A program made the position numbers and the translations under genes. The notes beneath the pieces were generated by a model. The model was not told where the DNA came from and did not search any database. It saw only the letters and a program-made list of their open reading frames with translations. This document shows positions 6,614-64,000 of a stretch of DNA of 64,000 nucleotides, in pieces (position 1 is the stretch's first letter; every line of letters begins with the position of its first letter). The DNA comes from Thermoproteota archaeon (GTDB taxonomy: Archaea > Thermoproteota > Methanomethylicia > Methanomethylicales > Methanomethylicaceae). The stretch lies in the NCBI GenBank assembly GCA_029887765.1, contig JARXPF010000001.1, positions 488-64,487 of the forward strand. The letters run 5' to 3'.

Positions 6614-8102
6614 ATTTTTCTCTTAATACTCTTCTAAGTATTTTCCATGCATTCATTTTTGGAAGTTCATTTAAAAATATTATGTATTTTGGAATTTTAT
6701 AATTTGCAATTTTATCTTTACAAAATTCAATTATTTCTTCTGAAGTAGCATTTTCACCTGATTTTAAAACTATAGCAGCAGCTGGAACTTCTCCTCTTCT
6801 TTCATCATATTTACTAAATACAGCAACTTCAGCAACTTTAGGATGTTTAAGAATTACTTCTTCTACTTCATTTGGATATATTTTCCAACCAGACATTATT
6901 ATAACATCTTTTTTTCTTGTAGTTATATAAAGCACTCCATCTTCATCAATATATCCTAAATCTCCTGTTAAAAACCAACCATCTTCAAGAAAAGATTTTT
7001 TTGTTTCTTCTGGATTCATCCAATATCCTTTTGCAACACCTGGTCCTCTTATAGCAATTTCACCTATTTCACCAATAGGAAGTTTTATTTTTGGATTATT
7101 TGGATCAACAATTTTTATTTCAGTATAACCTATTGGAAGTCCTACACTTTTAAAATTCTTAGATAAATATTGATATCTATATGGAACTGCAGTTCCAGAA
7201 CCTAAAACTAATGTTTCAGAAAGTCCATAAGCATTAACAACTTTAATATTAGGAAATCTTTTTGAAAAATCTCTCCATATTTTTTCAGGTGTAGTAGCCC
7301 CTCCAGTTATTATACATCTTACACTATTTAAATAATCTTCAATATTTAATGGAGAATATGCTAATTCATAAAGTACAGGGGGCATTCCTGAAATTATTGT
7401 TGCTTTATATTCTTTAATTAATTTTAAAAAATCTTTTAAATTATAACGTTCCATGATAATAAAAGTTGCACCATATCTAATTGCAGTAATACCCCAACTT
7501 ACACCAACATGAAAATGAGGATAGAATCCTAAATATATATCATTTTCATTAAGTTCTAAAGCCCATTTTTCAGCTTCTACAGCAGCCATCCAATTTCCAT
7601 GAGTTAGAATTGCTCCTTTAGGTTTTCCAGTAGTACCTGAAGTAAATTGAATTTGACATATTTCATCAATAGAAACATTTTCTGGAGAAAAATCAATTTT
7701 TTCATTTAAATTTTTTATATCTAATGGAATTTTAATAATATCATTTTTAATAATATCATTAAAATTATTTAATAAATCTTCACTTGTAATAATTGCTTTT
7801 GGTTTAGAAATATCTATTATATTAGAAATTTCAAGAATTTTATAATCTGGATTTATTGGTATAGCTATAGCACCTATTCTCCAAATAGCAAAATATGAAA
7901 TTATAGTCTCTGGCTTACTTCCTGTAGCTATTATTATTCTATCTCCTTTTTCAATTCCAATTTTTTTTAAATTATAAGAAAGAGAATTTACTTTATTTAA
8001 TAATGATTTATAATCAATGCAATAATTATTCTTAGAATCAATAATAGCTATTTTTTCACCATAATAAGAAGCATTTACTTCTAAAAAAGAAGTGAAGTTC
8101 AT
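6591..8102 (-). CDS. AMP-dependent acyl-CoA synthetase/ligase (medium/long-chain fatty-acid-CoA ligase family).
   Basis: 503 aa. AMP-binding motifs are present: FTSGTTGKPKGA, YGLSET, TGDLGY.DEDG.LYITTRKKD.I..GWKIYP.EVE. Confidence 0.9.
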   Translation of the reverse strand: MNFTSFLEVNASYYGEKIAIIDSKNNYCIDYKSLLNKVNSLSYNLKKIGIEKGDRIIIATGSKPETIISYFAIWRIGAIAIPINPDYKILEISNIIDISKPKAIITSEDLLNNFNDIIKNDIIKIPLDIKNLNEKIDFSPENVSIDEICQIQFTSGTTGKPKGAILTHGNWMAAVEAEKWALELNENDIYLGFYPHFHVGVSWGITAIRYGATFIIMERYNLKDFLKLIKEYKATIISGMPPVLYELAYSPLNIEDYLNSVRCIITGGATTPEKIWRDFSKRFPNIKVVNAYGLSETLVLGSGTAVPYRYQYLSKNFKSVGLPIGYTEIKIVDPNNPKIKLPIGEIGEIAIRGPGVAKGYWMNPEETKKSFLEDGWFLTGDLGYIDEDGVLYITTRKKDVIIMSGWKIYPNEVEEVILKHPKVAEVAVFSKYDERRGEVPAAAIVLKSGENATSEEIIEFCKDKIANYKIPKYIIFLNELPKMNAWKILRRVLREKYGGFPNK

Positions 8103-8106
8103 TATA

Positions 8107-9633
8107 TCACCCTAGTCTTTTTAATACTTCAATAGAAGGTTTTTTTGTAAATAAACTTACTATAAAGAATATAGGAATAGAAATTGCTAAAGCAGGTATT
8201 ACTGGATATATCCATGCTATTATAGGAGGAGCCCATGTTGATTTATATATAAATAAGAACCAAGTTAAGCCTACAATTAAGCCAGATAGCATTGATGAAA
8301 TTGCACCTAATTTTGTAGCACCTTTCCAATATAATCCTATAGTAACTGGTCCAAGAAAACAAGCAAATATAGTTCCAAAAGCAGCACCTACAATTTCTAC
8401 TATAATTCCTGTTTGAATTAAAGTTAATAATAATGATATTATTGCAAAAATTATTGGAGAAATTCTAGCAATTATTAATAATTTTTCTTCTTTTATATTT
8501 GGATTAATGGATTTTATAATATCTTTTGATAATGCAGCAGAAAGTACAATTAATGTTACTGCTAATGTTGACATAGAAGCAGCTACAGGTGCAGCTAAAA
8601 TAATTCCTTTAATACCTGATGGAGCAATTATTTCTATAGTTTTAGGAATTACCCAATCTGTATCTTTTAATAAAGAAAGAACACCAGTTTTCCCTATTTT
8701 ATCATCAATTATTAAATGACAAAAAGCACCTAAAGAAAACATTAAAAATGCATATAAAGCTACAAGTATTGGTCCAATTATTCTTCCTCTATTTATTACT
8801 TTTATATTTTTAGCAGTATAAAATTGCATTAATAAACTTGGAAGAGCAATTTGAGCTACACTTATGGAAAAAGTAACACTCATTATTAATAATGGAACCA
8901 TTCCAACATTCATTGCTGGTGGTGGTCCCATTCCATTAAATTTAAGCCAAAGTTCTCCAGAAATAGAATCTGCAATTTTCATTTGACTTAATTTTTCTAA
9001 ACCAATTATTGGTCCACCTACATTACTCATTATTAATCCAAATGTTATAATTGCTGAAATTAACATTAATAATCCAAGAAATAAATTTGTTAAAGCTGCA
9101 GCTCTAAAACCTCCAATACAAATGTAAATAATTACTGGAATTGTTAATAAAATTAATCCAATTTCGAAATTTGTATTTAATACCATGGCTAATATAATTG
9201 CCCCTCCTTTATAAACACTTGTTAAATATAATGTGAATAAAAATATTATTACAATTGCAGATACAATTTTTGCAAATTTACTTTCATATCTATTTTCAAT
9301 AAAATCAGGTATACTCATTATTCCAGTTTTTGAAGCATAATTAAAGAGTCTTCTACTTACTAAAATCCACATTAAAACTACACCAATTATATGCCATGCT
9401 GTAAGCCATGCTCCAAATCCTAAATTATAAAGATAAGTTGCTCCCCCTCCACCTAAAAAAGAAGCAGCACTAAAATAAGTAGCCATAAGAGAAAAAGCTA
9501 AAACCCAAGGTCCAAGTCCTTTATCTGCTAAGAAAAATCCACTTAAGGATTCTTTCATTTTATAACCTTTTAATCCTATTATAATTACAATAATAATTAT
9601 TGCTAAAATTATCAATACATCCATATTATTCAC
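8107..9633 (-). CDS. Sodium:solute symporter (SSS) family transporter. Its start is GTG at 9633 or ATG at 9624.
   Basis: 508 aa with about 13 TM helices. N-terminal SSS signatures (SLSGFFLADKGLGPW, MATYFSAASFLG) are present. It lies immediately upstream of the CoA ligase in the same orientation. Confidence 0.85.
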   Translation of the reverse strand: MNNMDVLIILAIIIIVIIIGLKGYKMKESLSGFFLADKGLGPWVLAFSLMATYFSAASFLGGGGATYLYNLGFGAWLTAWHIIGVVLMWILVSRRLFNYASKTGIMSIPDFIENRYESKFAKIVSAIVIIFLFTLYLTSVYKGGAIILAMVLNTNFEIGLILLTIPVIIYICIGGFRAAALTNLFLGLLMLISAIITFGLIMSNVGGPIIGLEKLSQMKIADSISGELWLKFNGMGPPPAMNVGMVPLLIMSVTFSISVAQIALPSLLMQFYTAKNIKVINRGRIIGPILVALYAFLMFSLGAFCHLIIDDKIGKTGVLSLLKDTDWVIPKTIEIIAPSGIKGIILAAPVAASMSTLAVTLIVLSAALSKDIIKSINPNIKEEKLLIIARISPIIFAIISLLLTLIQTGIIVEIVGAAFGTIFACFLGPVTIGLYWKGATKLGAISSMLSGLIVGLTWFLFIYKSTWAPPIIAWIYPVIPALAISIPIFFIVSLFTKKPSIEVLKRLG

Positions 9634-9916: not shown

Positions 9917-10582
9917 TTGCCAAAAGTTAATACTAAGAAAGTAAAATGGGAAGAAGTTGAAAAATGGTGTAAAGAAGTAAGTGATAAAATATTAGATTCT
10001 GGTTGGAAACCTGATGTAATAATTGCTATATCAAGAGGAGGATTTGTTCCTGCTAGATTAATATGTGATTTATTAATTGTAGGAGAGCTTATATCTCTTC
10101 AAATTACTCATTGGCCTTCTGCTGCTCAAATGGCAAAAGAAGCAGGAATAAAATATTCTCTTCATTGTGATTTAAGTAGAAAAAATGCATTAATTGTAGA
10201 TGATATTGCTGATACTGGAGATTCTATAATTATTGCAAAAGATCATGTATGGACTAATTGTAGACCAAAAGAACTTAAAGTTGCTACATTACAATGGATT
10301 TCAAAAACTAGTAAAATAAAACCAGATTATTATGCTGAAGAAGTAAAAGAATGGATTTGGTATCAATATCCTTGGACTAGATTAGAGGATATTATAGGAT
10401 TTACAAAACGTATAATAGAAGAAAATAAAGATTTAGAATTTGATTTAAAAATACTTAATGAAAAATTTATTGAATATTATGGAGTTACATTTGATGAATG
10501 GTATTATGAAAAAGCATTAAATTATTTATTTAATACTGGTTTTCTTATAGAAAAAGAAAATAAATATTTAATGAGGAGATAG
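9917..10582 (+). CDS. Purine phosphoribosyltransferase (type I PRTase fold; XGPRT/HGPRT-like) with a C-terminal extension.
   Basis: 221 aa. PRPP-binding motif LIVDDIADTGDS is present, with upstream IAISRGGFVPARL. Confidence 0.75.
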   Translation: MPKVNTKKVKWEEVEKWCKEVSDKILDSGWKPDVIIAISRGGFVPARLICDLLIVGELISLQITHWPSAAQMAKEAGIKYSLHCDLSRKNALIVDDIADTGDSIIIAKDHVWTNCRPKELKVATLQWISKTSKIKPDYYAEEVKEWIWYQYPWTRLEDIIGFTKRIIEENKDLEFDLKILNEKFIEYYGVTFDEWYYEKALNYLFNTGFLIEKENKYLMRR

Positions 10583-10585
10583 ATT

Positions 10586-11377
10586 ATGTCATATAATGCA
10601 GATATAGGAATTATAGGAGGAAGTGGATTATACGATCCAGGATTATTTGAAAAAACAATTGAAATAAAAGTACATACTCCTTATGGATCGCCTTCAGATG
10701 TTTTAACTATAGGAGAATATAAAGGTATAAAAATAGCTTTTTTACCTAGACATGGAAAAAGACATTCCATTCCTCCACATTTAATAAATTATAGAGCAAA
10801 TATATGGGCAATGATGGATTTAGGTGTTAAAAGAATAATTGCTCCATCTGCAGTAGGAAGTTTAAAAGAAGAAATTAAGCCAGGAGATATTGTAATACCA
10901 GATCAATTCATAGATTTTACAAAAAAACGTGTATATTCTTTCTATGATGGTGCTGTAGTTGGACATTTTTCCTTAGCAGATCCTTTCTGTCCTGAATTAA
11001 ATAGTATATGTATAGAAACTGCAAAGAAATTAGGATTACAATGTCATTCTCCAGCTACTTATATATGTATAGAAGGACCAAGATTTTCTACAAGAGCAGA
11101 ATCAAGGTTATTTAAAAATTGGGGAGCAGATATTATAGGAATGACTTTAATTCCTGAAGTAATTTTAGCAAGAGAATGTGGAATATGTTATACTACTATT
11201 GCTACAGTTACAGATTATGATGTTTGGGCTGAAAAACCAGTAACTGCTGAAGAAGTATTAAATACTTTAAAGCAAAATGTTGAAAAAGTAAAAAAATTAT
11301 TAATGGAATTAATACCAAAAATTCCAAAAGAAAGAAAATGTCAATGTAAAAAATCATCTGAAGGAGCTTTAGTTTAA
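10586..11377 (+). CDS. mtnP: 5'-methylthioadenosine phosphorylase (PNP/MTAP family).
   Basis: 263 aa. Family signatures include [34 protein letters not shown] and [12 protein letters not shown]. Confidence 0.9.
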
Positions 11378-12872: not shown

Positions 12873-15800
12873 ATGTTAAAAAATAAAAATATATCATATA
12901 TACATGTAGTAAAAAAAAGAGGGGTTAAAATTTTGGAAAATATTATAGGTAAAATTGAAGGTATAACAACAACAGAATCTTTCACAATGGTTTTAACAAA
13001 TTCTTGTATAGGAAAAGAAGATTATGTAGAAGTAGATTATGAAGGTAAAACTTATCTTTTAATTATAAAAGAAATTAAAAGAATTGGTGATAAACTTTTA
13101 GCAGATTGTATAGTAATAGGACAAACTCCTAAAACTCCTTTTCCATCAGGATTAGAAGTTAGAATTGCTTCAGAAGAAACTATAAGAAAAGGATTGGGAT
13201 TAACAACAACAGAAGCTGATGGTCTTTATATAGGAAAATTAAAATCAAGAGATTTAATGATATGGTTACCAGTAAAAAAACTTACAAGAATTTTTATTGT
13301 TGGTAAACCAGGATCTGGAAAATCTTATACAATGGGAGTAATTGCTGAAGAATTAATTAAAAAAGGAGTACCATTAGTAATAATAGATGCTCATGGAGAA
13401 TATTCAAGTTTAAAAGTACCTGCAGAATCTTATTCTGAAGAATTTAAAATAGAGCCAAAATCTTATTCTGAATATATTATAGAATTTGCTGATTTAACTT
13501 TTAATCCAGGTGCAGATATTGATATTTCTGCAATAGATAATTTAAAAATAGAAGACTTGGTATCTCAAATGCAATGTACTATAATAAATTTAAGAGGATT
13601 AGCAACTTCTGAACAATATTCTATTGTAGGAAAACTTTTGAATAGATTATTAGAAGCGATAATGATAATGCAAATACCTCCTTTTTATTTAGTATTAGAT
13701 GAAGCACATATATTTGCTGGAAGAAGTAAGCAAAAAGATCCATTAGTAAAAGAATGTTTAGATATTGTAAGAAGATTTGCTCAAGAAGGAAGAAAATTTG
13801 GAGCTAATTTAATAGTATTAACACAAAGACCTCAACTCTTAGATATGACTGTAAGAAGTCTTTCTGCTACTTGGATAATTCATCAACTTACTGATCCAAA
13901 TGATGTAAGAATAGCATTAGAAAGTGGAGGATTAAGTAAAGAGTGGAGTGAAAAAATTAATTGGCTTGAGCCTGGAGAAGCTATAATAACTGGAGATGTT
14001 GTTGAAAGAATACCATTACATATTAAAATAAGGAGAAGAGAAACAAGGCATGGTGCTCCTGGATTTAATCCATTAGATTTTGTTTCTCCAGAAGAGAAGG
14101 AGAAAATGAAGAAAAAACTAAGTTATTTAAAAACTCGTCAATTATATGTTATACAAGAAGGGCCTCCATCTCTTCCTTTACCTTCACTTTATTTACCAAT
14201 AAATATTGATGAAAAAATAATATTAGATAAATTAAAAGAAAATAGAACTTTTGATCATATTGAATTAATAAAATATAATTTAAAATATATGCCTGCATTA
14301 TTTGCAGAAGTTTCAGTAAATACTATGAGAAAAAATATTGAAATAAAAGATAGAATTAAAAGATTAATTCCAGTAGACTCTTCTATAACTACAATTGATT
14401 GGAGATATGAATCTGCTTATGGTTTAACTATAGATGATATTATAAATCCTTCACCTACTCTTCAAAGAGAAGGAAAACATCGTTCTCCATCTCCTTTAAT
14501 AATGGAGCCTTCAAGTATAGAAAATTTAAAAAATCTTTTGAAAAATTTTGCAATTTCAAAATTAACACAACAAGTATATTATCATAAAGAATTAAATGAA
14601 TATTCAAAATTAGGAGAATCAATTGAAGAATTTAAAAAGAGATTAAAAGAAAAATTAGAAATAATAAAGAAAAATAGAATTAATGAAGTTTCATTAACAT
14701 ATAATTCAAAAATAAAAGAAATAGAAAATTCAATAAAATCTATAAAAGATGAGTCTGAAAGTATAAAAAATCTTATTAATGAAATAGAAAGAGAACTTAA
14801 AGAACTTAAAAAAGAAAAAATAAAAGCTGAAAAAGAAGGAAGATCAACATTAAAAATATCAGAGCAAATTAAAACAAGAGAACTTAGAATTTCTAGACTT
14901 GAAAATAGATTATCTGAATTAAGTAGTAAAGTCATGGAATATAAAAAAGAAATGGAAATTTTAGAAGATAAAAAGAATGATGAAATTAAGAATATTACAA
15001 ATGAAATTGATAATATTATTAATTCACCTATACAAACCATGGTATTTCAACCAAGAATAGATGAAATTACAATAGAAGCAATGCATGTAATATGGATACC
15101 AATATTTGAAGCTATGTATAAAGCATACTTTAATGGTTTTAAAAAAGATTTAAAATTTGAATGGAATGGTGTAAATGGTAAAGGAATTTTTGGTAATTGT
15201 TCAGAATGTGGAATTACAATAAATCAATTACCTGATCAATTTATATGTTATAAATGTGGTGAAGTTTATTGTCAAGAACATTTAGTTTTATGTAATGAAT
15301 GTCAAAGAGGAATTTGTAATGAACATAAAAGAATTTGTCCAAATTGTGGAAAAATATATTGTATAGATGAAAAAACGTACATATGTACTAATTGTGGTAA
15401 AGAATTATGTATTAATTGTGTATTAAGATGTAGTGAATGTAAAGAAGTTTATTGTATAGAACATGTAAAAGAATGTAAAGTTTGTAATTCTAAATTATGT
15501 ATAAATCATTATAATGAACATGTAAAAGAATGTTCTAATTGTAAAAAACCATTATGTATACTTGAACAATTATTTTGTAAAATATGTAATAAAATATTAT
15601 GTAAAGATTGTGCAATTAAATGTTCAGAATGTGAAAATTATGTTTGTAATAAGCATATATGGTATTGTTCAGCATGTAGTAGAGCATTATGTATAAATGA
15701 AGATCGCTATGAATGTATTTCATGTAAAAAACCTCTATGTAGATTATGTGTAGCAACTTGTCAATTATGTGGAAATAACTTATGTAGACTTCATATCTAT

Positions 15801-15905
15801 ACTTGTCCAAATTGTGGAAGAGAAATTTGTCCCATGTGTATTATTGAAAAGAAGAAATTTGGAATATTTAAGAAAAATGTATGTAAAATATGTGCTCTTA
15901 AATAG
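12873..15905 (+). CDS. Large multidomain protein: an N-terminal HerA/FtsK-like P-loop ATPase (DUF87), a ~170-aa coiled coil, and a C-terminal ~235-aa array of about 13 tandem Cys-rich zinc-knuckle repeats.
   Basis: 1010 aa. Walker A is GKPGSGKS, Walker B is LVLDEAHIF, and the sensor/Arg-finger region is LTQRPQ. Residues ~560-720 are Lys/Glu-rich heptad sequence. Residues ~770-1005 repeat the unit C-x2-C-x4-(Y/L/I)C-x2-(H/C/E)-x3 about 13 times. Confidence 0.8.
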   Translation: MLKNKNISYIHVVKKRGVKILENIIGKIEGITTTESFTMVLTNSCIGKEDYVEVDYEGKTYLLIIKEIKRIGDKLLADCIVIGQTPKTPFPSGLEVRIASEETIRKGLGLTTTEADGLYIGKLKSRDLMIWLPVKKLTRIFIVGKPGSGKSYTMGVIAEELIKKGVPLVIIDAHGEYSSLKVPAESYSEEFKIEPKSYSEYIIEFADLTFNPGADIDISAIDNLKIEDLVSQMQCTIINLRGLATSEQYSIVGKLLNRLLEAIMIMQIPPFYLVLDEAHIFAGRSKQKDPLVKECLDIVRRFAQEGRKFGANLIVLTQRPQLLDMTVRSLSATWIIHQLTDPNDVRIALESGGLSKEWSEKINWLEPGEAIITGDVVERIPLHIKIRRRETRHGAPGFNPLDFVSPEEKEKMKKKLSYLKTRQLYVIQEGPPSLPLPSLYLPINIDEKIILDKLKENRTFDHIELIKYNLKYMPALFAEVSVNTMRKNIEIKDRIKRLIPVDSSITTIDWRYESAYGLTIDDIINPSPTLQREGKHRSPSPLIMEPSSIENLKNLLKNFAISKLTQQVYYHKELNEYSKLGESIEEFKKRLKEKLEIIKKNRINEVSLTYNSKIKEIENSIKSIKDESESIKNLINEIERELKELKKEKIKAEKEGRSTLKISEQIKTRELRISRLENRLSELSSKVMEYKKEMEILEDKKNDEIKNITNEIDNIINSPIQTMVFQPRIDEITIEAMHVIWIPIFEAMYKAYFNGFKKDLKFEWNGVNGKGIFGNCSECGITINQLPDQFICYKCGEVYCQEHLVLCNECQRGICNEHKRICPNCGKIYCIDEKTYICTNCGKELCINCVLRCSECKEVYCIEHVKECKVCNSKLCINHYNEHVKECSNCKKPLCILEQLFCKICNKILCKDCAIKCSECENYVCNKHIWYCSACSRALCINEDRYECISCKKPLCRLCVATCQLCGNNLCRLHIYTCPNCGREICPMCIIEKKKFGIFKKNVCKICALK

Positions 15906-16821: not shown

Positions 16822-16854
16822 GGCCGGCATACCGGCCTTAATTTTTCTATTTTT
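16822..16854 (+). terminator. GC hairpin (GGCCGG-CATA-CCGGCC) followed by a T-rich run, directly after albA. This is a probable transcription terminator.
   Basis: Perfect 6-bp GC stem in an AT-rich background, followed by TTAATTTTTCTATTTTT. Confidence 0.55.
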
Positions 16855-16866
16855 ATTATCGTATAG

Positions 16867-16874
16867 TTTAAATA
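16867..16874 (+). promoter_or_regulatory. Archaeal TATA-box-like element (TTTAAATA) about 33 nt upstream of the mtmC-like start codon, with GGAG at 16897-16900.
   Basis: Match to the archaeal TATA consensus at the expected distance from the start codon. Confidence 0.4.
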
Positions 16875-16906
16875 AAAAAATTAAAATAGAAAATTCGGAG
16901 ATAACC

Positions 16907-17560
16907 ATGAGTGAGTATATTCTTAATGAATTAGCAGAAGCTGTAATATTAGGTGATGAAGAAAAAGCAAAAAATGTTGCAAAAAAAGCTATTGAAATAG
17001 GAATAGATCCATTAATAGCAATAAATGATGGATTAATGAAAGGAATGCGACAGATAAGTGAAGATTTCAGTAATCTAAAAGTATATTTACCAGAAGTAAT
17101 GTTAGCAGCAGAAGCAATGAAAGCAGCTCTTTCTATACTTGAACCAAAAATATTAGAAAAAAAATTAACAGAAGAAAAAAGAAAAGTTGTTATTGGAACA
17201 ATTCAAGGAGATATTCATGATATAGGAAAGAATATTGTAGCTCTTTTACTTAAAGCAAATGGATTTGAAGTTTATGATTTAGGAAGAGATGTACCTGTAG
17301 ATGAATTTATTAAAAAAGCAGAAGAAGTAAAAGCAGATATTATAGCAGCATCAACACTTTTATCAACATCAATGCCATACATGGAGGATTTAATAAAAAT
17401 GTTAAATGAAAGAAATCTAAGAGATAAATACATAGTAATGGTAGGTGGTGGACCTGTAACAAGAGAATGGGCAAAAAGTATAGGAGCAGATGGTTATGGA
17501 GAAGATGGAGAAGAAGCTGTAAAAGTAGCAAAGGAATTGATAAAGGTGAAAAATAAATGA
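16907..17560 (+). CDS. Cobalamin-binding corrinoid protein, MtmC-like (methyltransferase-cognate corrinoid protein with B12-binding cap and Rossmann domains).
   Basis: 217 aa, the same length as MtmC. Carries the DxHxxG motif (GTIQGDIHDIGKNIV) and MVGGGPVT...GADGYGED, close to Methanosarcina MtmC. Confidence 0.85.
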   Translation: MSEYILNELAEAVILGDEEKAKNVAKKAIEIGIDPLIAINDGLMKGMRQISEDFSNLKVYLPEVMLAAEAMKAALSILEPKILEKKLTEEKRKVVIGTIQGDIHDIGKNIVALLLKANGFEVYDLGRDVPVDEFIKKAEEVKADIIAASTLLSTSMPYMEDLIKMLNERNLRDKYIVMVGGGPVTREWAKSIGADGYGEDGEEAVKVAKELIKVKNK

Positions 17561-18915
17561 TAAGTATTTGGGAAGTTTTAGATAGAGCAGAAACAGGACA
17601 ATATATGGAAGAAAGAGATTTTGATATTAAAATTGTAGCTAAAAAATGTAGAGAATTAGTAAAAGAATATGATATAAAATTTAATCCTAATGAAATTATT
17701 ACAACTGATGATTCAATGGCTGATGATGTATTTGAAGCTGGTTTTAAATTAGCTCTTGAGACTGGTATTTATTGTATAAATACAAAACGTATAATAAAAT
17801 TTGATGAAAGTGAAATAAAAGAAGGTATTGAAACTGCTCCTCATGAAATTATAGTAGGAGAAGGAAGAGATGCTAGGATTCTTTATGCAAGAGGAATAGA
17901 AGATAGAAGAAGACCAATAATATGTGGAGGACAAGCTGGTGCTACAATACCTGAAGAATGGTATGTACCAATGGCCATGTCTTATATGAAAGAACCCTTA
18001 ATTGATATGATAAATCATGGAGGAATTGCTATTGTTGAAGGAAGAAAAGTTAGAACTCATTCTCCTCTTGAAATTCAAGCTACAAGAAGAGAACTTTCAA
18101 TGTTAAAAGAAGCAGCAGCAAGATCAGGAAGACCTGGAATAGGGCTTATTGCAGGAGAAAGTAGTGTATCTGTATTAGGTGATTTAGCTATTGCTTCTGA
18201 AAAATATATGAAAACTTGTGATTCTCATTTAGTTGCTCTACTTAATGAACTTAAAACTGATTATGATAGACTTTCTAAAGCAGTTAATTTTACTGAATAT
18301 GGAGCTTATAATGTAACATTAGTAGATCCTATTATTGGAGGATATGCTGGAGGTCCTGAAGGTGTAGCTATATGTTTTATTGCTTCATTTCTACTTGGAA
18401 GACTTCTCTATAAATCAGAATATCATGTATGTCATCCTATACATTTTCGCTATGTTAGTACTAGTGCAATAGAATGCTTATGGAATTTAAATATAGTAGG
18501 TCAAGCAATGGCAAGAAATGCAAAATTCATAATAATGGGAGATGTTTGGACATCAGCAGGTGCTGGAAGTGAAATGATATTTTATGAAATTACTGCTAAT
18601 ACTATAACTAATGTAGTAACTGGAACTCATCCATTAGGAGTCTCAGCTACTAATGGAAAATATCCACATGCTTCAGGATTAGAAACAAAATTTATGGCAG
18701 AAGTAGCAATTGCTGCAACTAAATTAAATAGAAGTAATGCAAATGAAATTGTTACAAAACTTTCAAAAGAATATAAAGATAAAATGAATAATCCTGATAT
18801 AGGTAAGCCTTTTCCTGAATTATATGATATAAGAAAAGTTATACCAAATCCTGAATGGATGGCATTATATAAAGAAATGAAAAAGAAAATTGGTGATATC
18901 ACTGGATTATGGTGA
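17557..18915 (+). CDS. MtmB-family (monomethylamine methyltransferase-like) protein, paralog 1. It has no in-frame amber codon and Ile at the position of MtmB pyrrolysine.
   Basis: 452 aa. Blocks alignable with Methanosarcina MtmB: FEAGFKLALETGIYCINTKRIIKFDESEI; PIICGGQAGATIPEEWYVPMAMSY; SGRPGIGL; DPIIGGYAGGPEG; GKPFPELYDIRKVIPNPEWM. Confidence 0.8.
   Translation: MISIWEVLDRAETGQYMEERDFDIKIVAKKCRELVKEYDIKFNPNEIITTDDSMADDVFEAGFKLALETGIYCINTKRIIKFDESEIKEGIETAPHEIIVGEGRDARILYARGIEDRRRPIICGGQAGATIPEEWYVPMAMSYMKEPLIDMINHGGIAIVEGRKVRTHSPLEIQATRRELSMLKEAAARSGRPGIGLIAGESSVSVLGDLAIASEKYMKTCDSHLVALLNELKTDYDRLSKAVNFTEYGAYNVTLVDPIIGGYAGGPEGVAICFIASFLLGRLLYKSEYHVCHPIHFRYVSTSAIECLWNLNIVGQAMARNAKFIIMGDVWTSAGAGSEMIFYEITANTITNVVTGTHPLGVSATNGKYPHASGLETKFMAEVAIAATKLNRSNANEIVTKLSKEYKDKMNNPDIGKPFPELYDIRKVIPNPEWMALYKEMKKKIGDITGLW
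17641..17751 (+). repeat. 111-nt tract 100% identical to 19005-19115, located within the 5' ends of the two mtmB-like paralogs.
   Basis: Direct comparison of the two nucleotide stretches. The flanking sequence is diverged. Confidence 0.9.
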
Positions 18916-20291
18916 TTTTTTTGAGTTATAAGATTGATGAAATTACTAAAAGAGCTTTTGAAGGAAATTACATGGAAGAAAAGGACTTTGATATTCTTTT
19001 AATGAAAAAATGTAGAGAATTAGTAAAAGAATATGATATAAAATTTAATCCTAATGAAATTATTACAACTGATGATTCAATGGCTGATGATGTATTTGAA
19101 GCTGGTTTTAAATTATTTTTAGAATTAGGATTTTATTGTCAAACTACAAGAAGATGTATAAAATTTGATGAAAGTGAAATAAAATATGAATTAAAAAATT
19201 TACCAGAAAGTATTACTATTGGAGAAGGAAAAGATGCTGTAAAAATGTATTTAAGAAAAATTGAAGATAATAAACCTCCAATAATTCATAGTGGACCTAC
19301 AGGAACTCTTTGTAGTGAAGGCGATATTTATATAAAAACACTTAGAAGTTATGCTCAAGAATTAGTTATAGATTCTATTGGAGCTGGAACTTTAGCTACT
19401 ATAGATGGATTTAAAATAAGAAAAGGCACTCCTCAAGAATTTAGAGCTGCTAGAATTTTAGCAAGATGGGCTAGACAAGCTATAACTGATGCAGGAAGAC
19501 CTGGAATGCATATAAATGATATAGCAGTAGTCAGTCCTGAAGCTAAGATATGTGCTTTAGATCCATATAATGGTATACGTAAAACTGATGGATTAATAGT
19601 TGCTCAAATGGTTGAACTTAAAACTAGTTTTTCACATTTATCATTAGTAGAACATTTAATGAGTTATGGTTGTTTTATAGGAAATCTCATGACTCCAATT
19701 TTAGGAGGATATGCTGGAGGTCCTGAAGGAACTGCAATTGTTACTATTGCAGAACATTTAGCTGGAGTTCTATGCTATAATGCACATTATCATTATCTAA
19801 GCTTAACAAATGTTAAAAATTTAAATGGAACTGATAGAAGAGGATTATGGACAATAAGTATTGTTGGACAAGCTCTTGCAAGAAATACAAAAATAATGAG
19901 TGTTTTTGATTGTTATTGTGCTGCTGGACCAGGCACAGAGATTTTATTAAGAGAAGCAGCTGCAGGAGGTGTTGCTGCAACTGTAAGTGGATTACATTTA
20001 ATGGGATGTGGCTCATGTGGAGGAAAATTAATGGATCATGCAACTGGACTTGAAGCAAGATTATTAAAAGAAGTAGGTTTGGCTTCAACTGGAATGAAAA
20101 GGGAAAATGCTAATGATTTTCTAAATAAATGGATACCATTATATGAAGAATGGTTAGATATAACAAAAGCACCAAAAGGAAAAACTTTTCAAGAACTCTA
20201 TGACTTAACAGTAGTAAAACCAAAAGAAGAGTGGATGAATATTTATAATAAAATAAAAGAAGAATTAAAAGACTTTGGAATAATTATATAA
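18909..20291 (+). CDS. MtmB-family protein, paralog 2, also lacking pyrrolysine.
   Basis: 460 aa. N-terminal 37 aa are identical to paralog 1. Further blocks: PIIHSGPTGT, AGRPGM, ILGGYAGGPEGTAIV, GKTFQELYDLTVVKPKEEWM. Confidence 0.8.
   Translation: MVIFLSYKIDEITKRAFEGNYMEEKDFDILLMKKCRELVKEYDIKFNPNEIITTDDSMADDVFEAGFKLFLELGFYCQTTRRCIKFDESEIKYELKNLPESITIGEGKDAVKMYLRKIEDNKPPIIHSGPTGTLCSEGDIYIKTLRSYAQELVIDSIGAGTLATIDGFKIRKGTPQEFRAARILARWARQAITDAGRPGMHINDIAVVSPEAKICALDPYNGIRKTDGLIVAQMVELKTSFSHLSLVEHLMSYGCFIGNLMTPILGGYAGGPEGTAIVTIAEHLAGVLCYNAHYHYLSLTNVKNLNGTDRRGLWTISIVGQALARNTKIMSVFDCYCAAGPGTEILLREAAAGGVAATVSGLHLMGCGSCGGKLMDHATGLEARLLKEVGLASTGMKRENANDFLNKWIPLYEEWLDITKAPKGKTFQELYDLTVVKPKEEWMNIYNKIKEELKDFGIII
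19005..19115 (+). repeat. Second copy of the 111-nt identical tract (see 17641-17751).
   Basis: Identical nucleotide string. Confidence 0.9.
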
Positions 20292-20292
20292 A

Positions 20293-21225
20293 TTATTCTT
20301 TTAAAAATATAGATCCTAGAGAAGCTGGTCCTTTTGCTCTCCTTCCACCTATTAATAATGCTATAATTGCAACTGAATATGGAAGTATACTTAATAATTG
20401 ACTCATAGATGCTGATAAAGGACCTACAATTAATGTTCCAATCCATAATGAAAGTGCTTCAGTAAATCCAAATATTAGAGCTCCTCCAAAAGCTCCAATT
20501 GGATTCCATCTACCAAGAATTACGATAGATATTGCTACAAATCCTTTTGCTCCAGTTATTCTTACATCAAATACATTAAACATAGATATACATAACATTC
20601 CACCTGCCATTCCAACAAAAATTCCTTCTAAAATAAGAGCAATAAATCTTAATTTATCAACTTTAATTCCAAGTCTATAAGCTATACTAGGATCTTCTCC
20701 AATAGCTCTTAAACGAAGGCCAAAAGAAGTTTTAAATAATAAATAATAAACTATGGGAGTTGAAATAAAAGCAATATATACAAATATTGTTTGATTAAAG
20801 AAAATAGGTCCAATAATTGGTATTTGACTTAAAAATGGAATAGGAATAGGAGTTATTAATTCACTTAAATATGGTAATGCTCCTTGAGAGAATATATATC
20901 TAAAGAAATAAAGACAAAGACCATAAGTTAGTAAATTTATAGCTAATCCAGATATAACTTGATTTAAATTTAATTTTATAATTAAAAATCCAAAAATTAT
21001 TGCTATTAAAATTCCTCCAATAATTGCCATTAATAAGCCTATCCAAAGATTTTTAGTAAAATATGCTCCAATAAATCCTGAAAAAGCACCAATTAGCATA
21101 ATTCCTTCTATACCTAAATTTAAAATACCCCCTCTTTCAACAATTGTTTCTCCTAAAGAAGCTAAGATTAATACAGTAGAAGTAGCCATTGTTGTTGCTA
21201 AAAGTCCTATTATTAATTCTATCAT
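20293..21225 (-). CDS. ABC transporter permease (BMP/nucleoside-type uptake system, second permease).
   Basis: 310 aa polytopic protein, in an operon with a second permease, a duplicated ATPase and a BMP-family binding protein. Confidence 0.8.
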   Translation of the reverse strand: MIELIIGLLATTMATSTVLILASLGETIVERGGILNLGIEGIMLIGAFSGFIGAYFTKNLWIGLLMAIIGGILIAIIFGFLIIKLNLNQVISGLAINLLTYGLCLYFFRYIFSQGALPYLSELITPIPIPFLSQIPIIGPIFFNQTIFVYIAFISTPIVYYLLFKTSFGLRLRAIGEDPSIAYRLGIKVDKLRFIALILEGIFVGMAGGMLCISMFNVFDVRITGAKGFVAISIVILGRWNPIGAFGGALIFGFTEALSLWIGTLIVGPLSASMSQLLSILPYSVAIIALLIGGRRAKGPASLGSIFLKE

Positions 21226-22256
21226 GTTTTAATCACCTCTCTTTTCTCTAAATATCTTAAAATTATTTCAGATGCTAATACCATTATTATTAACATTCCT
21301 TGAATAAAATCTACAATTCCTTGTGGTTGATTTAATATTCTAGACATTGTAGAAGCTCCATTAATTATAGCAGCAATAAATATAGAAGCAAGTGTTATTC
21401 CAATTGGATGATTTTGACCTAAAAGTGCTATTACTATTCCAGTATATCCATAACCAGGAGATATTGTTGGTCTCATTCTATATTGAATTCCAGCTACTTC
21501 AAAAAATCCAGCCATTCCTGCTAAAGCTCCACTAATTACTAATGCCATGAATATTGTAGTACTAACACTTATTCCACTATATTTAGCAGCTTCAGGATTT
21601 TCTCCTACTACTTTTAATTTAAAACCAAAAGTTGTTTTCATCATTAGAAAGTAAATCAATGGAAGTATTATAATAAAAGTAATTAATATTCCTAAATGAA
21701 AACGTGTATGATTAATTATAATTGGAAAAATAGCAGAATAAGGAATTCTCGAAGATTCTGGAAATAATGTTTCTGGACTTTTAAAAGGAAAAGCTAATAA
21801 CCATTGAACTAAATTTATTGCAACATAATTCATTAAAAATGTTGTTATTACTTCATTAATTCCAAGTTTAGCTTTCATAAAAGCAGGTATAGAAGCCCAA
21901 GCCGCCCCTCCTAAAATTGAAAAAATTATTGCAATAGGTAAAGTTAAAAAAAATTCACCCATAAATAGAGCTGCTATTGTTCCTAACATAGCACCTATAT
22001 ATAACTGACCTTCAGCACCAATATTCCATACTTTACATTTAAAAGATATTGCCAATCCTAAAGAAATTAATAATATAGGAGATGTTCTCACAAGAGTTTC
22101 AATTATTAATAATTCATTTCCAAATGCTCCATGAAATATATAATAAAATGCAAGAAAAGGATTAGCTCCTGTGAATATAAATAAAATTGATGTTGCTAAA
22201 AAAGTTAAAGCAATTGCTAATACTGCTCTATAAAGTGGTTTTAAGTTTAATTCCAT
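21222..22256 (-). CDS. ABC transporter permease.
   Basis: 344 aa polytopic protein whose stop overlaps the downstream permease start. Confidence 0.8.
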   Translation of the reverse strand: MELNLKPLYRAVLAIALTFLATSILFIFTGANPFLAFYYIFHGAFGNELLIIETLVRTSPILLISLGLAISFKCKVWNIGAEGQLYIGAMLGTIAALFMGEFFLTLPIAIIFSILGGAAWASIPAFMKAKLGINEVITTFLMNYVAINLVQWLLAFPFKSPETLFPESSRIPYSAIFPIIINHTRFHLGILITFIIILPLIYFLMMKTTFGFKLKVVGENPEAAKYSGISVSTTIFMALVISGALAGMAGFFEVAGIQYRMRPTISPGYGYTGIVIALLGQNHPIGITLASIFIAAIINGASTMSRILNQPQGIVDFIQGMLIIMVLASEIILRYLEKREVIKT

Positions 22257-22264
22257 TTAATCAC

Positions 22265-23785
22265 CTAAATAATTCCAAGCATTAATTTTGAAATTTCATG
22301 TATATCAATATTATTCCTATTAAATTCTCCAACTATTCTACCATTAAACATAACAAGAATTCTATCACTTAATTTTAAAATTTCATCTAAATCTGCAGAA
22401 ATTAAAAGAATACCAATTCCTTTAGTTTTTAAATCAAATAGTATTTGATGTAGAATTTCTGTAGATTTTACATCAAGACCTGCACTTGGATTTTCAGCTA
22501 TTAATACTTTAGCATGATTAGAAAGTTCTCTTGCAACAATAATTTTTTGAATATTTCCACCTGAAAGATTTCTTACTGCAATTTGAGTATTTGGAGTCAC
22601 AATTCCAAAAATATTTATTAAATTTTTAGCAAAATTTTCTATCATATTTTTATTCATAATTATGTTTTTGCTATAGGGAGGTTTATCAAAACTTTTAAGT
22701 ATTAAATTTTCAGCTACACTTAGATTAAGAACTACTCCTCTATTCAATCGATCTTCTGGTATGTAAGCAATTCCATTTCTTATTATAAATTTTGGTGATT
22801 TATTTATTAATTCATTATTTTTAAAAAATATTGAACCAGATTCTGCTTTTCTAAGTCCAGTTAATGCTTCAACAAGCTCTTTTTGACCATTTCCAGCAAC
22901 TCCTGCTATTCCAAGAATTTCACCTGCATAAAGAGTAAAACTAACATCATTTACAGCTACTTCTTTTCTATCTCCTAATACTTTCAAATTCTTTACTATT
23001 AATAAAGGCTCTCCTAAATGAGATTCTTGAAATTTAAAAGTAGGACGTGTTTCTCCAACAATTAAAAAAGCTAATTCATCTTCATTAGTTTCACTTGGAA
23101 TAAGAGTTTTTATAACTTTACCTTTTCTCATAATAGTAATTCTATCACTTATAGAAAGAGCTTCTTTAACTTTATGAGTTATTAAAATTATTGATTTACC
23201 CATGGATTTTAATTTTCTTATCATATTAAATAATTCTTTAACTTCTATTGGTGTAAGAACTGAAGTAGGTTCATCAAATATTAAAATATCTGCATCTTGA
23301 CATAATATTTTAATAATTTCTACTCTTTGTCTTATTCCAACAGGTAATTCTTCTATTTTTGCATCTGGATTTATATTTAAATTAAGAGAAGAAGAAATTT
23401 CTTCTATTTTCTTTTTTACTTCTTCTAAATCTAATTTAAATTTTAATGGAAGAGATAATGCAATATTTTCAACAACTGTAAATGATGGAATAAGAGTAAA
23501 ATGTTGATGTACTACTCCAATTTTTAAATTAATAGCATCTATTGGATTTTTAATATTAACTTTTTTTCCATTTACATATATTTCACCTGAATCTGGAGTA
23601 ATACAACCAGAAATTATTTTTATAAGTGTAGTTTTTCCTGCACCATTTTCTCCTAATATTGAATGAATTTCTCCTTTAATTAATGAAAAAGAAACATTAT
23701 CATTTGCAATTACTCCATTTGGATAAACTTTTCTAATATCTTTTACATATAAAACAATATCATTAGAAAAAAAAGGATTTGACAT
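22265..23785 (-). CDS. ABC transporter ATP-binding protein with two fused nucleotide-binding domains.
   Basis: 506 aa. Two Walker A motifs (GENGAGKTTL, GVAGNGQ) and two LSGG signatures. Confidence 0.9.
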   Translation of the reverse strand: MSNPFFSNDIVLYVKDIRKVYPNGVIANDNVSFSLIKGEIHSILGENGAGKTTLIKIISGCITPDSGEIYVNGKKVNIKNPIDAINLKIGVVHQHFTLIPSFTVVENIALSLPLKFKLDLEEVKKKIEEISSSLNLNINPDAKIEELPVGIRQRVEIIKILCQDADILIFDEPTSVLTPIEVKELFNMIRKLKSMGKSIILITHKVKEALSISDRITIMRKGKVIKTLIPSETNEDELAFLIVGETRPTFKFQESHLGEPLLIVKNLKVLGDRKEVAVNDVSFTLYAGEILGIAGVAGNGQKELVEALTGLRKAESGSIFFKNNELINKSPKFIIRNGIAYIPEDRLNRGVVLNLSVAENLILKSFDKPPYSKNIIMNKNMIENFAKNLINIFGIVTPNTQIAVRNLSGGNIQKIIVARELSNHAKVLIAENPSAGLDVKSTEILHQILFDLKTKGIGILLISADLDEILKLSDRILVMFNGRIVGEFNRNNIDIHEISKLMLGII

Positions 23786-23796
23786 TAATGTGTCAC

Positions 23797-24834
23797 CTAA
23801 GGCTTAGGTTCAGTAAATTTTGGTACAGATATTGGAACAAGCTCTCCATCTACAATCCATTTTACTTTTTCATTAATAATTTCATTTACTAAATTATCAG
23901 CAAAAGCTTTTACTTCAGGGAATTTATTAGCAAAAGCTTCATTCCAAATAAATTTTGCACCCCCAGTCTTCATTGTTGTATAGTATATTCCTGCTGGATA
24001 TTTGCCAGTTCTTGCACCTTCTATTAAAGTCTTAACCATGGGATACAAATCCCAAACTACACTACCAATTACTACATCTGGTGCAAGTGCATTTTGATCT
24101 TCAATATTACCAAAAGCATATGCAAGTATTTTTCCAGTAACAGGATCTTTACAAGCTTCAAATACACCATATCTCTCAGCATAAATTACATCAACACCAG
24201 CACTTATTAAAGCAGATGCAGCAATTTTTGCAGCATTTGGATCATACCATGAATTAATATAAGATATATAAATCTTTATATCAGGATTTACTGATTTTGC
24301 ACCTTCTATAAATCCATTTAATAAATTATTTACATCTCCTACACCAGGAAAAGCTGTCACAATACCAAGTTTATTAGTTTGAGTAATTTTTGCAGCAATT
24401 GCTCCTGCTACATATGCTGCTTCTTGTATGTAATAGTCATAAAGAACTAAATTCTTTCCAAAGTTTTTACAAAGACCTGAACCTTGAGCAAAGTATACAT
24501 TTGGAAATTGTGGAGCTAATCTATCTGTAGTTTCCCAAAAGCCCCAACTATGTGGAATTATTAAATTATATCCATGAGTAATATATTCTCTTATTACTCT
24601 TTCAACATCAGCTTCACTTACTCTTTCAGAATAGCTATATTGAACATCCAATTCTTTACTTGCTTTTTGAAGAGCTTTATGCAATATTTGATTCCATGTT
24701 TCTTCTAATGGTGTAACATATATTGCAGCAACTTTGAATTTTTGTAATGGTATAATTATATTTGTATGTGCGTATATTCCACCAGCAATTATTGCTATGA
24801 TGATTAAAATTATTAATATTGTTGTAGTTTTCAT
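23797..24834 (-). CDS. BMP-family (basic membrane protein / PnrA-Med-like) ABC substrate-binding lipoprotein.
   Basis: 345 aa with an N-terminal signal/TM segment. BMP-family blocks: KVAAIYVTP, DVIYAERYGVFEA. Confidence 0.75.
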   Translation of the reverse strand: MKTTTILIILIIIAIIAGGIYAHTNIIIPLQKFKVAAIYVTPLEETWNQILHKALQKASKELDVQYSYSERVSEADVERVIREYITHGYNLIIPHSWGFWETTDRLAPQFPNVYFAQGSGLCKNFGKNLVLYDYYIQEAAYVAGAIAAKITQTNKLGIVTAFPGVGDVNNLLNGFIEGAKSVNPDIKIYISYINSWYDPNAAKIAASALISAGVDVIYAERYGVFEACKDPVTGKILAYAFGNIEDQNALAPDVVIGSVVWDLYPMVKTLIEGARTGKYPAGIYYTTMKTGGAKFIWNEAFANKFPEVKAFADNLVNEIINEKVKWIVDGELVPISVPKFTEPKP

Positions 24835-45517: not shown

Positions 45518-45699
45518 CCAGACACCTCCTTATTTGAAGGTTTCCATTTTATAGCCCATAAAAATAGTATTATCACTTGAATTATTACAGGAATTATTAA
45601 ACAAGCAAATGTAATTGGTAACATACCTAATATTCGATCTGTTGATGATAATTGCTCTTTAATAATGAAAATAGCCATTAAAATACTGAAAATTTCCAT
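45514..45699 (-). CDS. Small 61-aa two-TM membrane protein coupled to the downstream SSS transporter (putative SSS small subunit).
   Basis: This ORF is in the track. Its start overlaps the stop of the PaaK-like gene and its stop overlaps the SSS start. Confidence 0.5.
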   Translation of the reverse strand: MEIFSILMAIFIIKEQLSSTDRILGMLPITFACLIIPVIIQVIILFLWAIKWKPSNKEVSG

Positions 45700-63996: not shown

Positions 63997-64000
63997 TTTA

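Follow-up and report, generated by a model that had tools for sequence, protein, structure and literature searches.

Tandem pyrrolysine-free MtmB homologs sharing one corrinoid protein in Methanomethylicia: a genomic link to purine uptake and a possible role in demethylation of N-methylated purines

A 64-kb stretch of archaeal DNA (the window; contig JARXPF010000001.1, positions 488 to 64,487, from a Thermoproteota archaeon of the Methanomethylicaceae) was found to carry a triad of adjacent genes encoding a corrinoid protein, termed C, and two homologs of the monomethylamine methyltransferase MtmB, termed B1 and B2. Judged by their sequences, B1 and B2 are genuine members of the MtmB family that lack pyrrolysine (Pyl), and a Pyl-type mechanism is excluded. 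We tentatively propose, with a confidence that stops somewhat short of probable, that the triad is the substrate-activating half of a corrinoid-dependent methyl-transfer system in which an imported N-methylated purine base or nucleoside would be demethylated directly and its methyl group fed into methyl-reducing methanogenesis. The wider claim, that B1- and B2-type homologs across organisms demethylate N-methylated purine bases or nucleosides (N6-methyladenine or N6-methyladenosine plus a second, related substrate) in a corrinoid-dependent reaction, is held a degree more cautiously, as one possible reading of their sequences and neighbors. The genes themselves are not a discovery, being Pyl-free MtmB homologs and a corrinoid protein in a known methanogen lineage. 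Their link to purine or nucleoside uptake and catabolism is strong and appears to be new: in a literature search of incomplete coverage, no paper was found that links MtmB or corrinoid methyltransferases to methylated purines, and the preprint on the "mlp gene cluster" mentions neither MtmB nor purines.

RESULTS

B1 and B2 are MtmB-family proteins without pyrrolysine

Both proteins were aligned end to end with the PF05369 (MtmB) profile, B1 with 393 bits (profile positions 1 to 448 of 450) and B2 with 362 bits (positions 5 to 450) against a cutoff of 25. Both also matched the sequence of Methanosarcina barkeri MtmB, the structures of which are 1L2Q, 1NTH and 1TV2, B1 to 1L2Q with an E value of 5e-77 and B2 to 1TV2 with an E value of 2e-75, at an identity of only about 33%. 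An AlphaFold2 model of B1 built from a 100-sequence alignment (pLDDT, 96.6; pTM, 0.94) was superimposed on 1L2Q by Foldseek with a TM score of 0.96 and a root mean square deviation of 1.5 Å over 452 columns, the modeled fold being an MtmB-type TIM barrel. The GRPG, GGYAGG and C-terminal GK(P/T)F..YD blocks of M. barkeri MtmB were kept in B1 and B2, and, as for M. barkeri MtmB/MtmC, a cognate partner with a DxHxxG B12-binding motif was encoded immediately upstream.

Pyl202 of M. barkeri MtmB aligned with Ile198 of B1 (ATT, nucleotides 18148 to 18150) and with Asn203 of B2 (AAT, nucleotides 19515 to 19517), and pairwise HMMER alignments and a 265-sequence MAFFT alignment agreed on this assignment. 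No internal stop codon was present in C, B1 or B2. The first-pass annotation of this DNA, made from the letters alone, had placed both large open reading frames (ORFs) in the MtmB family, noted the lack of a UAG-encoded Pyl, given Ile and "possibly Asn" as the residues at the Pyl position and concluded that the substrate, if any, is probably not methylamine via the Pyl mechanism. The family assignment, the lack of Pyl and the two residues were borne out, neither a Pyl codon nor a Pyl residue being found in B1 or B2.

The pocket around the pyrrolysine position is remodeled

The MtmB family was represented by 994 clusters at 50% identity (E value of ≤1e-3), and the best 150 of the 994 representatives were mostly full length, at about 450 to 470 amino acids. 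In a distance tree of 265 full-length members, B1 and B2 fell into different clades; the two proteins are 43% identical and are anciently diverged. At the Pyl column, most members of the window's B1 clade and of the related B1-type clades in archaea and bacteria had Ile, Leu or Val; a few had Lys, and one small related clade had Ala. Asn was invariant at this column in the B2 clade, Asn or Glu was found in a large bacterial B2-like clade, and the residue directly after it was invariably Asp in the B2 types.

The residues that reportedly surround Pyl in M. barkeri MtmB, namely, E205, E229, E259 and Q333 (attributed to Hao et al. 2002; the residue types match the sequence), were followed through the same clades. 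The E259 column had Leu in every B1-type and B2-type clade (L255 in B1, Leu260 in B2). The E229 column had L225 in B1 and Ile230 in B2. In 98 to 100% of the window's B1 clade, both this column and the E259 column had Leu. Other B1-like clades had Leu at the E229 column or, in two of them, Phe or Met, and either Leu or Ile was found there in the B2 clade of the window and in the large B2-like clade of bacteria. The Q333 column had Asp in B1, in B2 and in nearly all B1- and B2-type clades. At the E205 column, B1 and most B1 types kept Glu, one B1-type clade had Gln, and the B2 types had Ala; B2 has also lost the ESS motif that the B1 types keep. This change of acidic pocket residues to hydrophobic ones argues, at the level of the alignment, that the pocket for the charged Pyl adduct has been remade along two different lines, each of them largely hydrophobic. 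Measured against MtmB in the strict sense, B1 and B2 have no in-frame UAG at position 202, and the acidic and polar set presumed to ring the Pyl is not kept, E205 being found in B1 only. The Pyl-proximal non-Pyl clades, those nearest M. barkeri MtmB, kept E259 and mostly kept E or D229. B1 and B2 clustered apart from these clades, in a tree that held no sequence labeled MtqB.

The triad is a coupled operon with a generic corrinoid protein

The first-pass annotation had described C, B1 and B2 as one coupled unit, and the three ORFs were recovered exactly as it had drawn them (Table 1); they are translationally coupled. Of the two ATGA overlaps that it reported, the one at 17557 (C/B1) is a true ATGA overlap. 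The one at 18909 did not hold: the B1/B2 junction is a 7-nucleotide overlap, ATGGTGA, provided that ATG 18909 is the B2 start, or a 5-nucleotide gap after B1 with the TTG start at 18921 used in public annotations of metagenome-assembled genomes (MAGs), which gives 456 amino acids. The B2 start is ambiguous, and Methanosuratincola B2 orthologs begin a few codons further in. Upstream, a hairpin appears to set the operon apart from the Alba gene, and downstream of the hairpin the operon appears to own a TATA-like box and a GGAG site. Ratios of nonsynonymous to synonymous substitution rates (dN/dS) against orthologs were 0.07 to 0.11 for C, 0.07 to 0.17 for B1 and 0.10 to 0.16 for B2, and strong purifying selection acts on all three genes.

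TABLE 1 Features of the triad and its surroundings, in window coordinates
Feature	Position	Strand	Description
C gene	16907-17560	+	217 amino acids; cognate corrinoid (B12-binding) protein; ORF call and profile matches
B1 gene	17557-18915	+	452 amino acids; Pyl-free MtmB-family methyltransferase (MT1)
B2 gene	18909-20291	+	460 amino acids from ATG 18909; second Pyl-free MtmB-family methyltransferase
Terminator-like hairpin	16822-16855	+	GGCCGG-CATA-CCGGCC, then T-rich run; 3' of Alba gene; read from sequence
Putative archaeal TATA-like box	16867-16874	+	TTTAAATA; read from sequence; weak, region about 29% GC
Putative ribosome-binding site	16897-16900	+	GGAG ahead of corrinoid gene; read from sequence; weak
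Gene-conversion tract, B1 copy	17641-17820	+	180 nucleotides, 89% identical to B2 copy
Gene-conversion tract, B2 copy	19005-19184	+	Partner of B1 tract
Bmp/PnrA-type ABC transporter operon	20293-24834	-	Convergent to triad; PF02653 (two), PF00005 (two), PF02608
ABC permease	20293-21225	-	PF02653 (BPD_transp_2)
ABC permease	21222-22256	-	PF02653 (BPD_transp_2)
Double ATPase	22265-23785	-	PF00005 (two)
Bmp/PnrA-type substrate-binding protein	23797-24834	-	PF02608

C comprises PF02607 (B12-binding_2) and PF02310 (B12-binding) domains, with the His-on DxHxxG motif as DIHDIG (amino acids 102 to 107, nucleotides 17210 to 17227), and it passed the TIGR02370 model for methyltransferase cognate corrinoid proteins (225.5 bits; cutoff, 215.3). 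None of the substrate-specific NCBIfam equivalogs (MtmC, MtbC, MtgC or MtaC) reached its cutoff with C, the top substrate models being of the MtgC/MtbC type. By these profile matches, C is a generic methylamine-type corrinoid protein and not specifically MtmC. The earlier label, MtmC-like with a DxHxxG motif, was therefore right about the corrinoid protein and its motif and wrong about MtmC specificity.

The two methyltransferase genes were about 54% identical at the nucleotide level outside a tract of the N-terminal ~60 codons. Within that tract the paralogs of one genome were 89% identical in the window, 87% in the related locus L010 and 71% in Methanosuratincola petrocarbonis LWZ-6, and the corresponding orthologs, window versus L010, were 79% and 76% identical. 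Outside the tract, orthologs were more alike than paralogs. As this order is reversed within the tract, there is recurrent gene conversion between the paralogs. The likeness was not seen in the more distant loci L021, L026 and L054. The converted tract may mark a shared docking surface for the corrinoid protein.

The triad is widespread in Methanomethylicia, including cultured methanogens

MAGs labeled "Candidatus Methanomethylicaceae" encode a protein with 100% identity to B1, and the locus was found in at least six such assemblies. In the NCBI taxonomy, the Methanomethylicaceae belong to class Methanosuratincolia of the Thermoproteota, as do the genera Methanomethylicus and Methanosuratincola. 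When species-representative genomes were scanned, the C-B1-B2 triad was located in 24 named Methanomethylicia genome loci, to which further metagenome loci were added, and it was present in every retrieved Methanomethylicia locus complete enough to show it. These included the closed genomes of two cultured methyl-reducing methanogens, M. petrocarbonis LWZ-6 (CP130488.1; 76% identity to the window for B1 and 71% for B2) and "Ca. M. verstraetei" LCB70 (CP186953.1). B1 ortholog identity across the Methanomethylicia loci was 72 to 90%.

The "non-methanogen context" of the first-pass annotation is not supported, given these occurrences; the methanogenesis genes would simply lie outside the window. 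Its description of an uncharacterized system also overstated the novelty: the genes are routinely annotated as mtmB or mtbC in Methanomethylicia, for which MAG papers list "mtmB" and "mtbC/mttC" among the methyltransferases (PMC10033731), and Pyl-free MtmB homologs are a recognized class. Methyltransferase pyrrolysine was reported only in Methanosarcinales and Methanomassiliicoccales by Berghuis et al. 2019 (PMC6421429), and PylS and MtmB/MtbB have been reported in some Methanomethylicia/Methanomethylicus genomes (PMC5424206). No literature linking Methanosuratincola with mtmB was found, in a search whose coverage was incomplete and did not extend to the 2024 cultivation papers.

The first-pass statement that no mcr, mtbA, ramA or pyl gene lies in the window stood after annotation of the whole 64 kb, in which no mcr, URO-D-type MT2 (the methyltransferase acting after the corrinoid protein), RamA/RACo or pyl gene was found. 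Scans for tRNA and Rfam RNAs likewise found no tRNA (including tRNA-Pyl) and no Rfam RNA in the 64 kb. Of a complete module of MT1, corrinoid protein, MT2 and activase, the window thus lacks the MT2 and RamA/RACo. URO-D and RACo genes stood beside homologous genes in L052 to L054, L057, L059, L060, L064, L087, L100 and L101. Compared with the M. barkeri system, the present one differs in having two diverged paralogs per corrinoid protein, in its link to a Bmp-type ATP-binding cassette (ABC) transporter and in having no pyl, mtbA or ramA nearby.

B1- and B2-type genes are associated with nucleoside-type transporters and purine catabolism

The neighborhoods of 65 further metagenome loci, found with a six-sequence B1-type alignment, and of several long-contig loci were examined by calling ORFs, clustering the neighbors and naming the clusters by Pfam or NCBIfam. 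When loci were dereplicated at 90% identity and required to have at least three visible neighbors, 35 of 38 loci had, within five genes, either a transporter (BPD_transp_2/Bmp ABC or another) or a gene of purine catabolism, as was seen in 11 of 12 from Methanomethylicia, 10 of 12 from other archaea and all 14 from a mostly bacterial group.

In Methanomethylicia, the triad was followed in nearly every sufficiently long locus, that of LWZ-6 included, by a convergent ABC operon of two BPD_transp_2 permeases, a double ATPase and a Bmp/PnrA-type protein, as seen in the window. The nearest solved structure to the window's Bmp protein was AtzT, an atrazine periplasmic binding protein (6PI5; E value of 3e-32), and the next was a Brucella basic membrane lipoprotein. 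AtzT has reportedly also been crystallized with guanine, and the Brucella lipoprotein with adenine.

The other archaeal loci had named relatives in Ignisphaera, Desulfurococcaceae, Korarchaeota, Baldrarchaeia and Asgardarchaeia, and in some archaeal loci an ECF transporter took the place of the Bmp-type ABC transporter. In some of these loci the transporter was divergent from C-B1-B2-(RACo or URO-D), and a divergent arrangement was seen in L027, L053, L054, L060, L064 and L101. The transporter genes were interleaved on the same strand in L057, with the order C-B1-ATPase-permease-permease-UROD-B1'-RACo, and similarly in L059 and L099. One Methanomethylicia-group locus had the order adenine-deaminase-like-EamA-URO-D/RACo/C-B1. 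On a 4.9-Mb, probably bacterial contig (L100), one strand carried RACo-B2type-C-Bmp-ATPase-permease-permease-homocysteine methyltransferase. Bacterial B1-type genes occurred in the orders (ABC)-xanthine-dehydrogenase-like-adenosine deaminase-C-B1 and adenine deaminase-C-B1-pterin-binding MT2 and, in Formimonas, NCS1 permease-C-B1-MtrH-adenine deaminase-PucR. Another B2-type gene adjoined xanthine-dehydrogenase subunits and an amidohydrolase that passed the cutoff for "5'-deoxyadenosine deaminase." No choline/betaine transporter of the BCCT or OpuA type was identified among the annotated neighbor families.

The association persists where gene orientation, transporter type or even the domain of life differs and is therefore hard to ascribe to chance. 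For both enzyme types, the gene context points to a methyl donor that would be imported by nucleoside/nucleobase-type transporters and tied to adenine/purine catabolism.

Several single loci had features of their own. In L034, L061, L063 and L065, from Asgard or related archaea, a lone B1-type gene lay directly 3' of an ECF-type transporter (double ATPase, ~197-amino-acid membrane protein and CbiQ), with no corrinoid-protein gene visible within the fetched flanks. The ~197-amino-acid protein had no Pfam match and is possibly a new S component. L033 (Formimonas warabiya CP017634.1, positions 1866248 to 1883612) contained, in one purine-flavored locus with an NCS1 permease, an adenine deaminase and PucR, two genes of the MtmB family accompanied by corrinoid proteins and MT2s of their own. 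Ga0180325_111810, reported as the MtmB-superfamily protein most induced on dichloromethane (PMC9768040), may by its gene numbering lie in L033. Directly 5' of the corrinoid gene (L012, L014 and L032), a Hydantoinase_A-family gene was found in some Methanomethylicia loci, and in Methanosuratincola an aldehyde:ferredoxin oxidoreductase gene and a ferredoxin gene took its place.

DISCUSSION

Proposed pathway and substrate

In the proposed pathway, the adjacent Bmp/PnrA-type ABC transporter would import a methylated nitrogen compound, which B1 or B2 would bind in the TIM-barrel pocket that is the Pyl site of MtmB, and its methyl group would be transferred to Co(I) on C. From there an MtaA-like MT2 of the URO-D family, encoded separately, would move the methyl group to coenzyme M (CoM), and methyl-CoM would then be reduced to methane with H2. 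A RamA/RACo-type activase encoded elsewhere would repair oxidized cobalt. What we infer here is which compound is the substrate, which way the methyl group flows and what this genome supplies as MT2, activase and MCR partners. The donor would most likely be an N-methylated purine of the adenine type, either a base such as N6-methyladenine or a nucleoside such as N6-methyladenosine. In N6-methyladenine, the CH3-NH-C(=N) group resembles the adduct of methylamine with pyrrolysine, which makes this base an attractive candidate. A purine ring would also fit well into the hydrophobic pocket, which in B1 comprises Ile198, Leu225, Leu255 and Trp331. By analogy, this proposal extends the idea put forward for MtgB and MtqB that the substrate mimics the Pyl adduct. 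In bacteria, the demethylated product, adenine or adenosine, would then be deaminated and oxidized. B1 and B2 are probably two enzymes for two related substrates served by one shared corrinoid protein, given that each paralog type occurs elsewhere alone with a corrinoid protein of its own, which speaks for two enzymes and not for an obligate heteromer.

Two parallels among known systems bear on this proposal. In the non-Pyl MttB superfamily (MtgB, MtcB, MtpB and MtyB), a Pyl-free paralog likewise acts on a mimic of the Pyl-amine adduct within the same logic of MT1, corrinoid protein and MT2, but those proteins belong to COG5598 (about 12% identity; TM score of about 0.5) and use other substrates. 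Removal of the N6-methylamino group is known from 6-MAD (Bh0637 and Bsu06560/YerA) and Escherichia coli Add, which release methylamine from N6-methyladenine or N6-methyladenosine (PMC8643624, PMC13296781). Homologous genes flank the bacterial B1- and B2-type genes, but these deaminases are hydrolytic and not corrinoid methyltransferases, and none was found in the window.

Direct demethylation is favored, on gene content, by the importer-containing operons that have no deaminase (L057, L059, L100 and the window). Formimonas strain DCMF, which has a B1-type system and cannot grow on monomethylamine (MMA) (PMC9768040), speaks for it as well. Several observations weigh against it. LWZ-6 carries the orthologous triad and grows on MMA plus H2 (PMC12244365), which fits the simpler annotation, and the purine link could be indirect, as the deaminase families beside the bacterial homologs include the methylamine releasers named above. 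The ABC operon of the window is convergent to the triad and is not cotranscribed with it, and the general synteny around the triad, including TatD and MBL genes, is kept as well. The best NCBIfam match of the window's Bmp protein was a weak one to a "putative B6" model (108 bits; cutoff, 400), and the MT2, RamA and MCR genes were missing from the 64 kb. Finally, the case for a purine substrate of B1 and B2 is built from sequence and context.

Alternative substrates and roles

The foremost alternative is that B1, B2 or both are Pyl-independent MMA:corrinoid methyltransferases acting on MMA that is either free or released within the cell from N6-methyladenine or N6-methyladenosine by a deaminase, with the methyl group passing to CoM and on to methane. 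We consider this somewhat less likely than direct demethylation of purines. The triad-bearing LWZ-6 reduces methanol and MMA with H2 and does not use dimethylamine (DMA), trimethylamine (TMA), betaine or methanethiol (PMC12244365), the genes are annotated as mtmB and mtbC in Methanomethylicia, and MtqB, a non-Pyl MtmB, has a small MMA activity (PMC13044021). Adenine- and adenosine-deaminase genes next to the bacterial homologs could also provide a source of methylamine. However, Pyl is reported to be important for methylamine methyltransferases (PMC13044021, PMC9842639), and here the positions of Pyl, E229 and E259 have become hydrophobic. A nucleoside-type ABC importer within the same operon would not be needed for MMA, and Formimonas cannot grow on MMA despite its B1-type system. 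As Pyl machinery is reported in some Methanomethylicia (PMC5424206), a Pyl-type enzyme elsewhere in LWZ-6 could explain its use of MMA.

An improbable alternative is that B1 and B2 are quaternary-amine methyltransferases acting, like MtqB, on tetramethylammonium, choline or a related compound. MtqB of Methanococcoides methylutens Q3c (ACT9XH_RS04775), the only characterized non-Pyl MtmB homolog, demethylates tetramethylammonium and choline (Kashyap et al. 2026, PMC13044021), and, by analogy with the non-Pyl MttB enzymes, a cationic N-methyl donor may need no Pyl. As an MtmB homolog, MtqB resembles B1 and B2 in lacking Pyl and in working with a corrinoid protein of its own (MtqC) in a methanogen, and it shows that such proteins can be active MT1 enzymes. 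Conserved Met/Cys and aromatic residues are described around tetramethylammonium docked into MtqB (PMC13044021). It is said to branch near the Pyl-MtmBs, the remaining non-Pyl MtmBs being left as "unknown function" (PMC13044021), whereas B1 and B2 fall into separate, deeper clades with a remodeled pocket, apart from the Pyl-proximal non-Pyl clades that keep E259 and mostly E/D229, a placement that would set them at a distance from MtqB. The hosts differ as well, MtqB being from Methanosarcinales and the triad from Thermoproteota. The neighbors of the B1- and B2-type genes are purine/nucleoside genes and Bmp transporters and include no BCCT- or OpuA-type family among those annotated, and betaine, TMA and DMA are not among the substrates of LWZ-6 (choline and tetramethylammonium were not among the reported tests; PMC12244365).

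It is more improbable still that only one paralog is catalytic and that the other is a structural or regulatory partner in a hetero-oligomer, or that the pair is decaying. The tandem pair does share one corrinoid protein, E205 and the ESS motif of the B1 types are missing from B2, and gene conversion holds the N-terminal ~60 codons alike, as might be expected for a shared interface. On the other hand, dN/dS is 0.07 to 0.17 in both genes, the Asn at the Pyl column and the following Asp are invariant in the B2 clades, and elsewhere B2-type genes stand alone, accompanied by a corrinoid protein, activase, transporter and MT2 of their own, as B1-type genes likewise occur alone. An obligate B1/B2 heteromer was rejected as the main model on the last of these grounds.

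The chance that a Pyl-type gene has lost its TAG by a sequencing or assembly error is negligible: no support for such an artifact was found, the at least six independent MAG assemblies with the identical B1 each have a full-length, uninterrupted B2 adjoining it, Ile/Leu and Asn are kept at the Pyl column in dozens of orthologs from independent samples, including the two closed genomes, and database entries for genuine Pyl-type MtmB genes are split into fragments of ~201 and ~251 amino acids. Among the matches to M. barkeri MtmB1, the named TAG-split fragments were from Methanosalsum and Methanolobus, which is uninformative about Pyl-type genes in Methanomethylicia.

Implications

Methanomethylicia are cultured methanogens outside the Euryarchaeota whose substrate range has been inferred largely from annotations such as "mtmB." If the Pyl-free enzymes do not use free methylamine, substrate predictions based on mtmB need revision. 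The purine link offers a concrete hypothesis for the function of the non-Pyl MtmBs, one that can be addressed in the existing cultures LWZ-6 and LCB70, and the function of a family of about 1,000 clusters with one characterized non-Pyl member would become tractable. Were the purine proposal true, methylated nucleobases would join the list of methylotrophic substrates as a previously unrecognized class. The methyl groups of degraded, modified nucleic acids could then be turned into methane by Methanomethylicia and into acetate or methionine by anaerobic bacteria, and purine N-methyl groups would be removed without oxygen, an anaerobic route of m6A demethylation. If B1 and B2 are instead Pyl-independent MMA enzymes, they would be equally informative as to why pyrrolysine exists.

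Other features of the window

The rest of the window consisted of housekeeping genes, for example, those for Alba, a HerA-like ATPase, acyl-CoA synthetases with sodium:solute symporter (SSF) transporters and lysine biosynthesis. The GC content was 21 to 33% per 2-kb bin, compared with 54% for M. petrocarbonis, yet the orthologous proteins were 70 to 77% identical. A phosphoribosyltransferase gene and a PNP_UDP_1 nucleoside phosphorylase gene (purine salvage; 9917 to 11377, plus strand) lie about 6 kb upstream of the triad and are syntenic in L010 and L011, which may be coincidental. The HerA/DUF87-type ATPase upstream of the operon (12873 to 15905, plus strand; 1,010 amino acids) has a long coiled-coil middle part and repeated CxxC zinc-ribbon-like motifs at its C terminus, and it is kept in the closest relatives (L009 to L011, L036 and L037). 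The only heterodisulfide-reductase-related gene seen in the window encodes an HdrD-like protein (CCG plus Fer4_8) and adjoins a FAD_binding_4 (GlcD-like) dehydrogenase gene in a region that runs past the window end (62755 to 64000, minus strand). Pairs of AMP-binding acyl-CoA synthetase and SSF genes are repeated on the minus strand at 6591 to 9633, 43922 to 46649 and 47163 to 48701, and some of the SSF genes in these pairs carry attached tiny ORFs of 55 to 61 amino acids.

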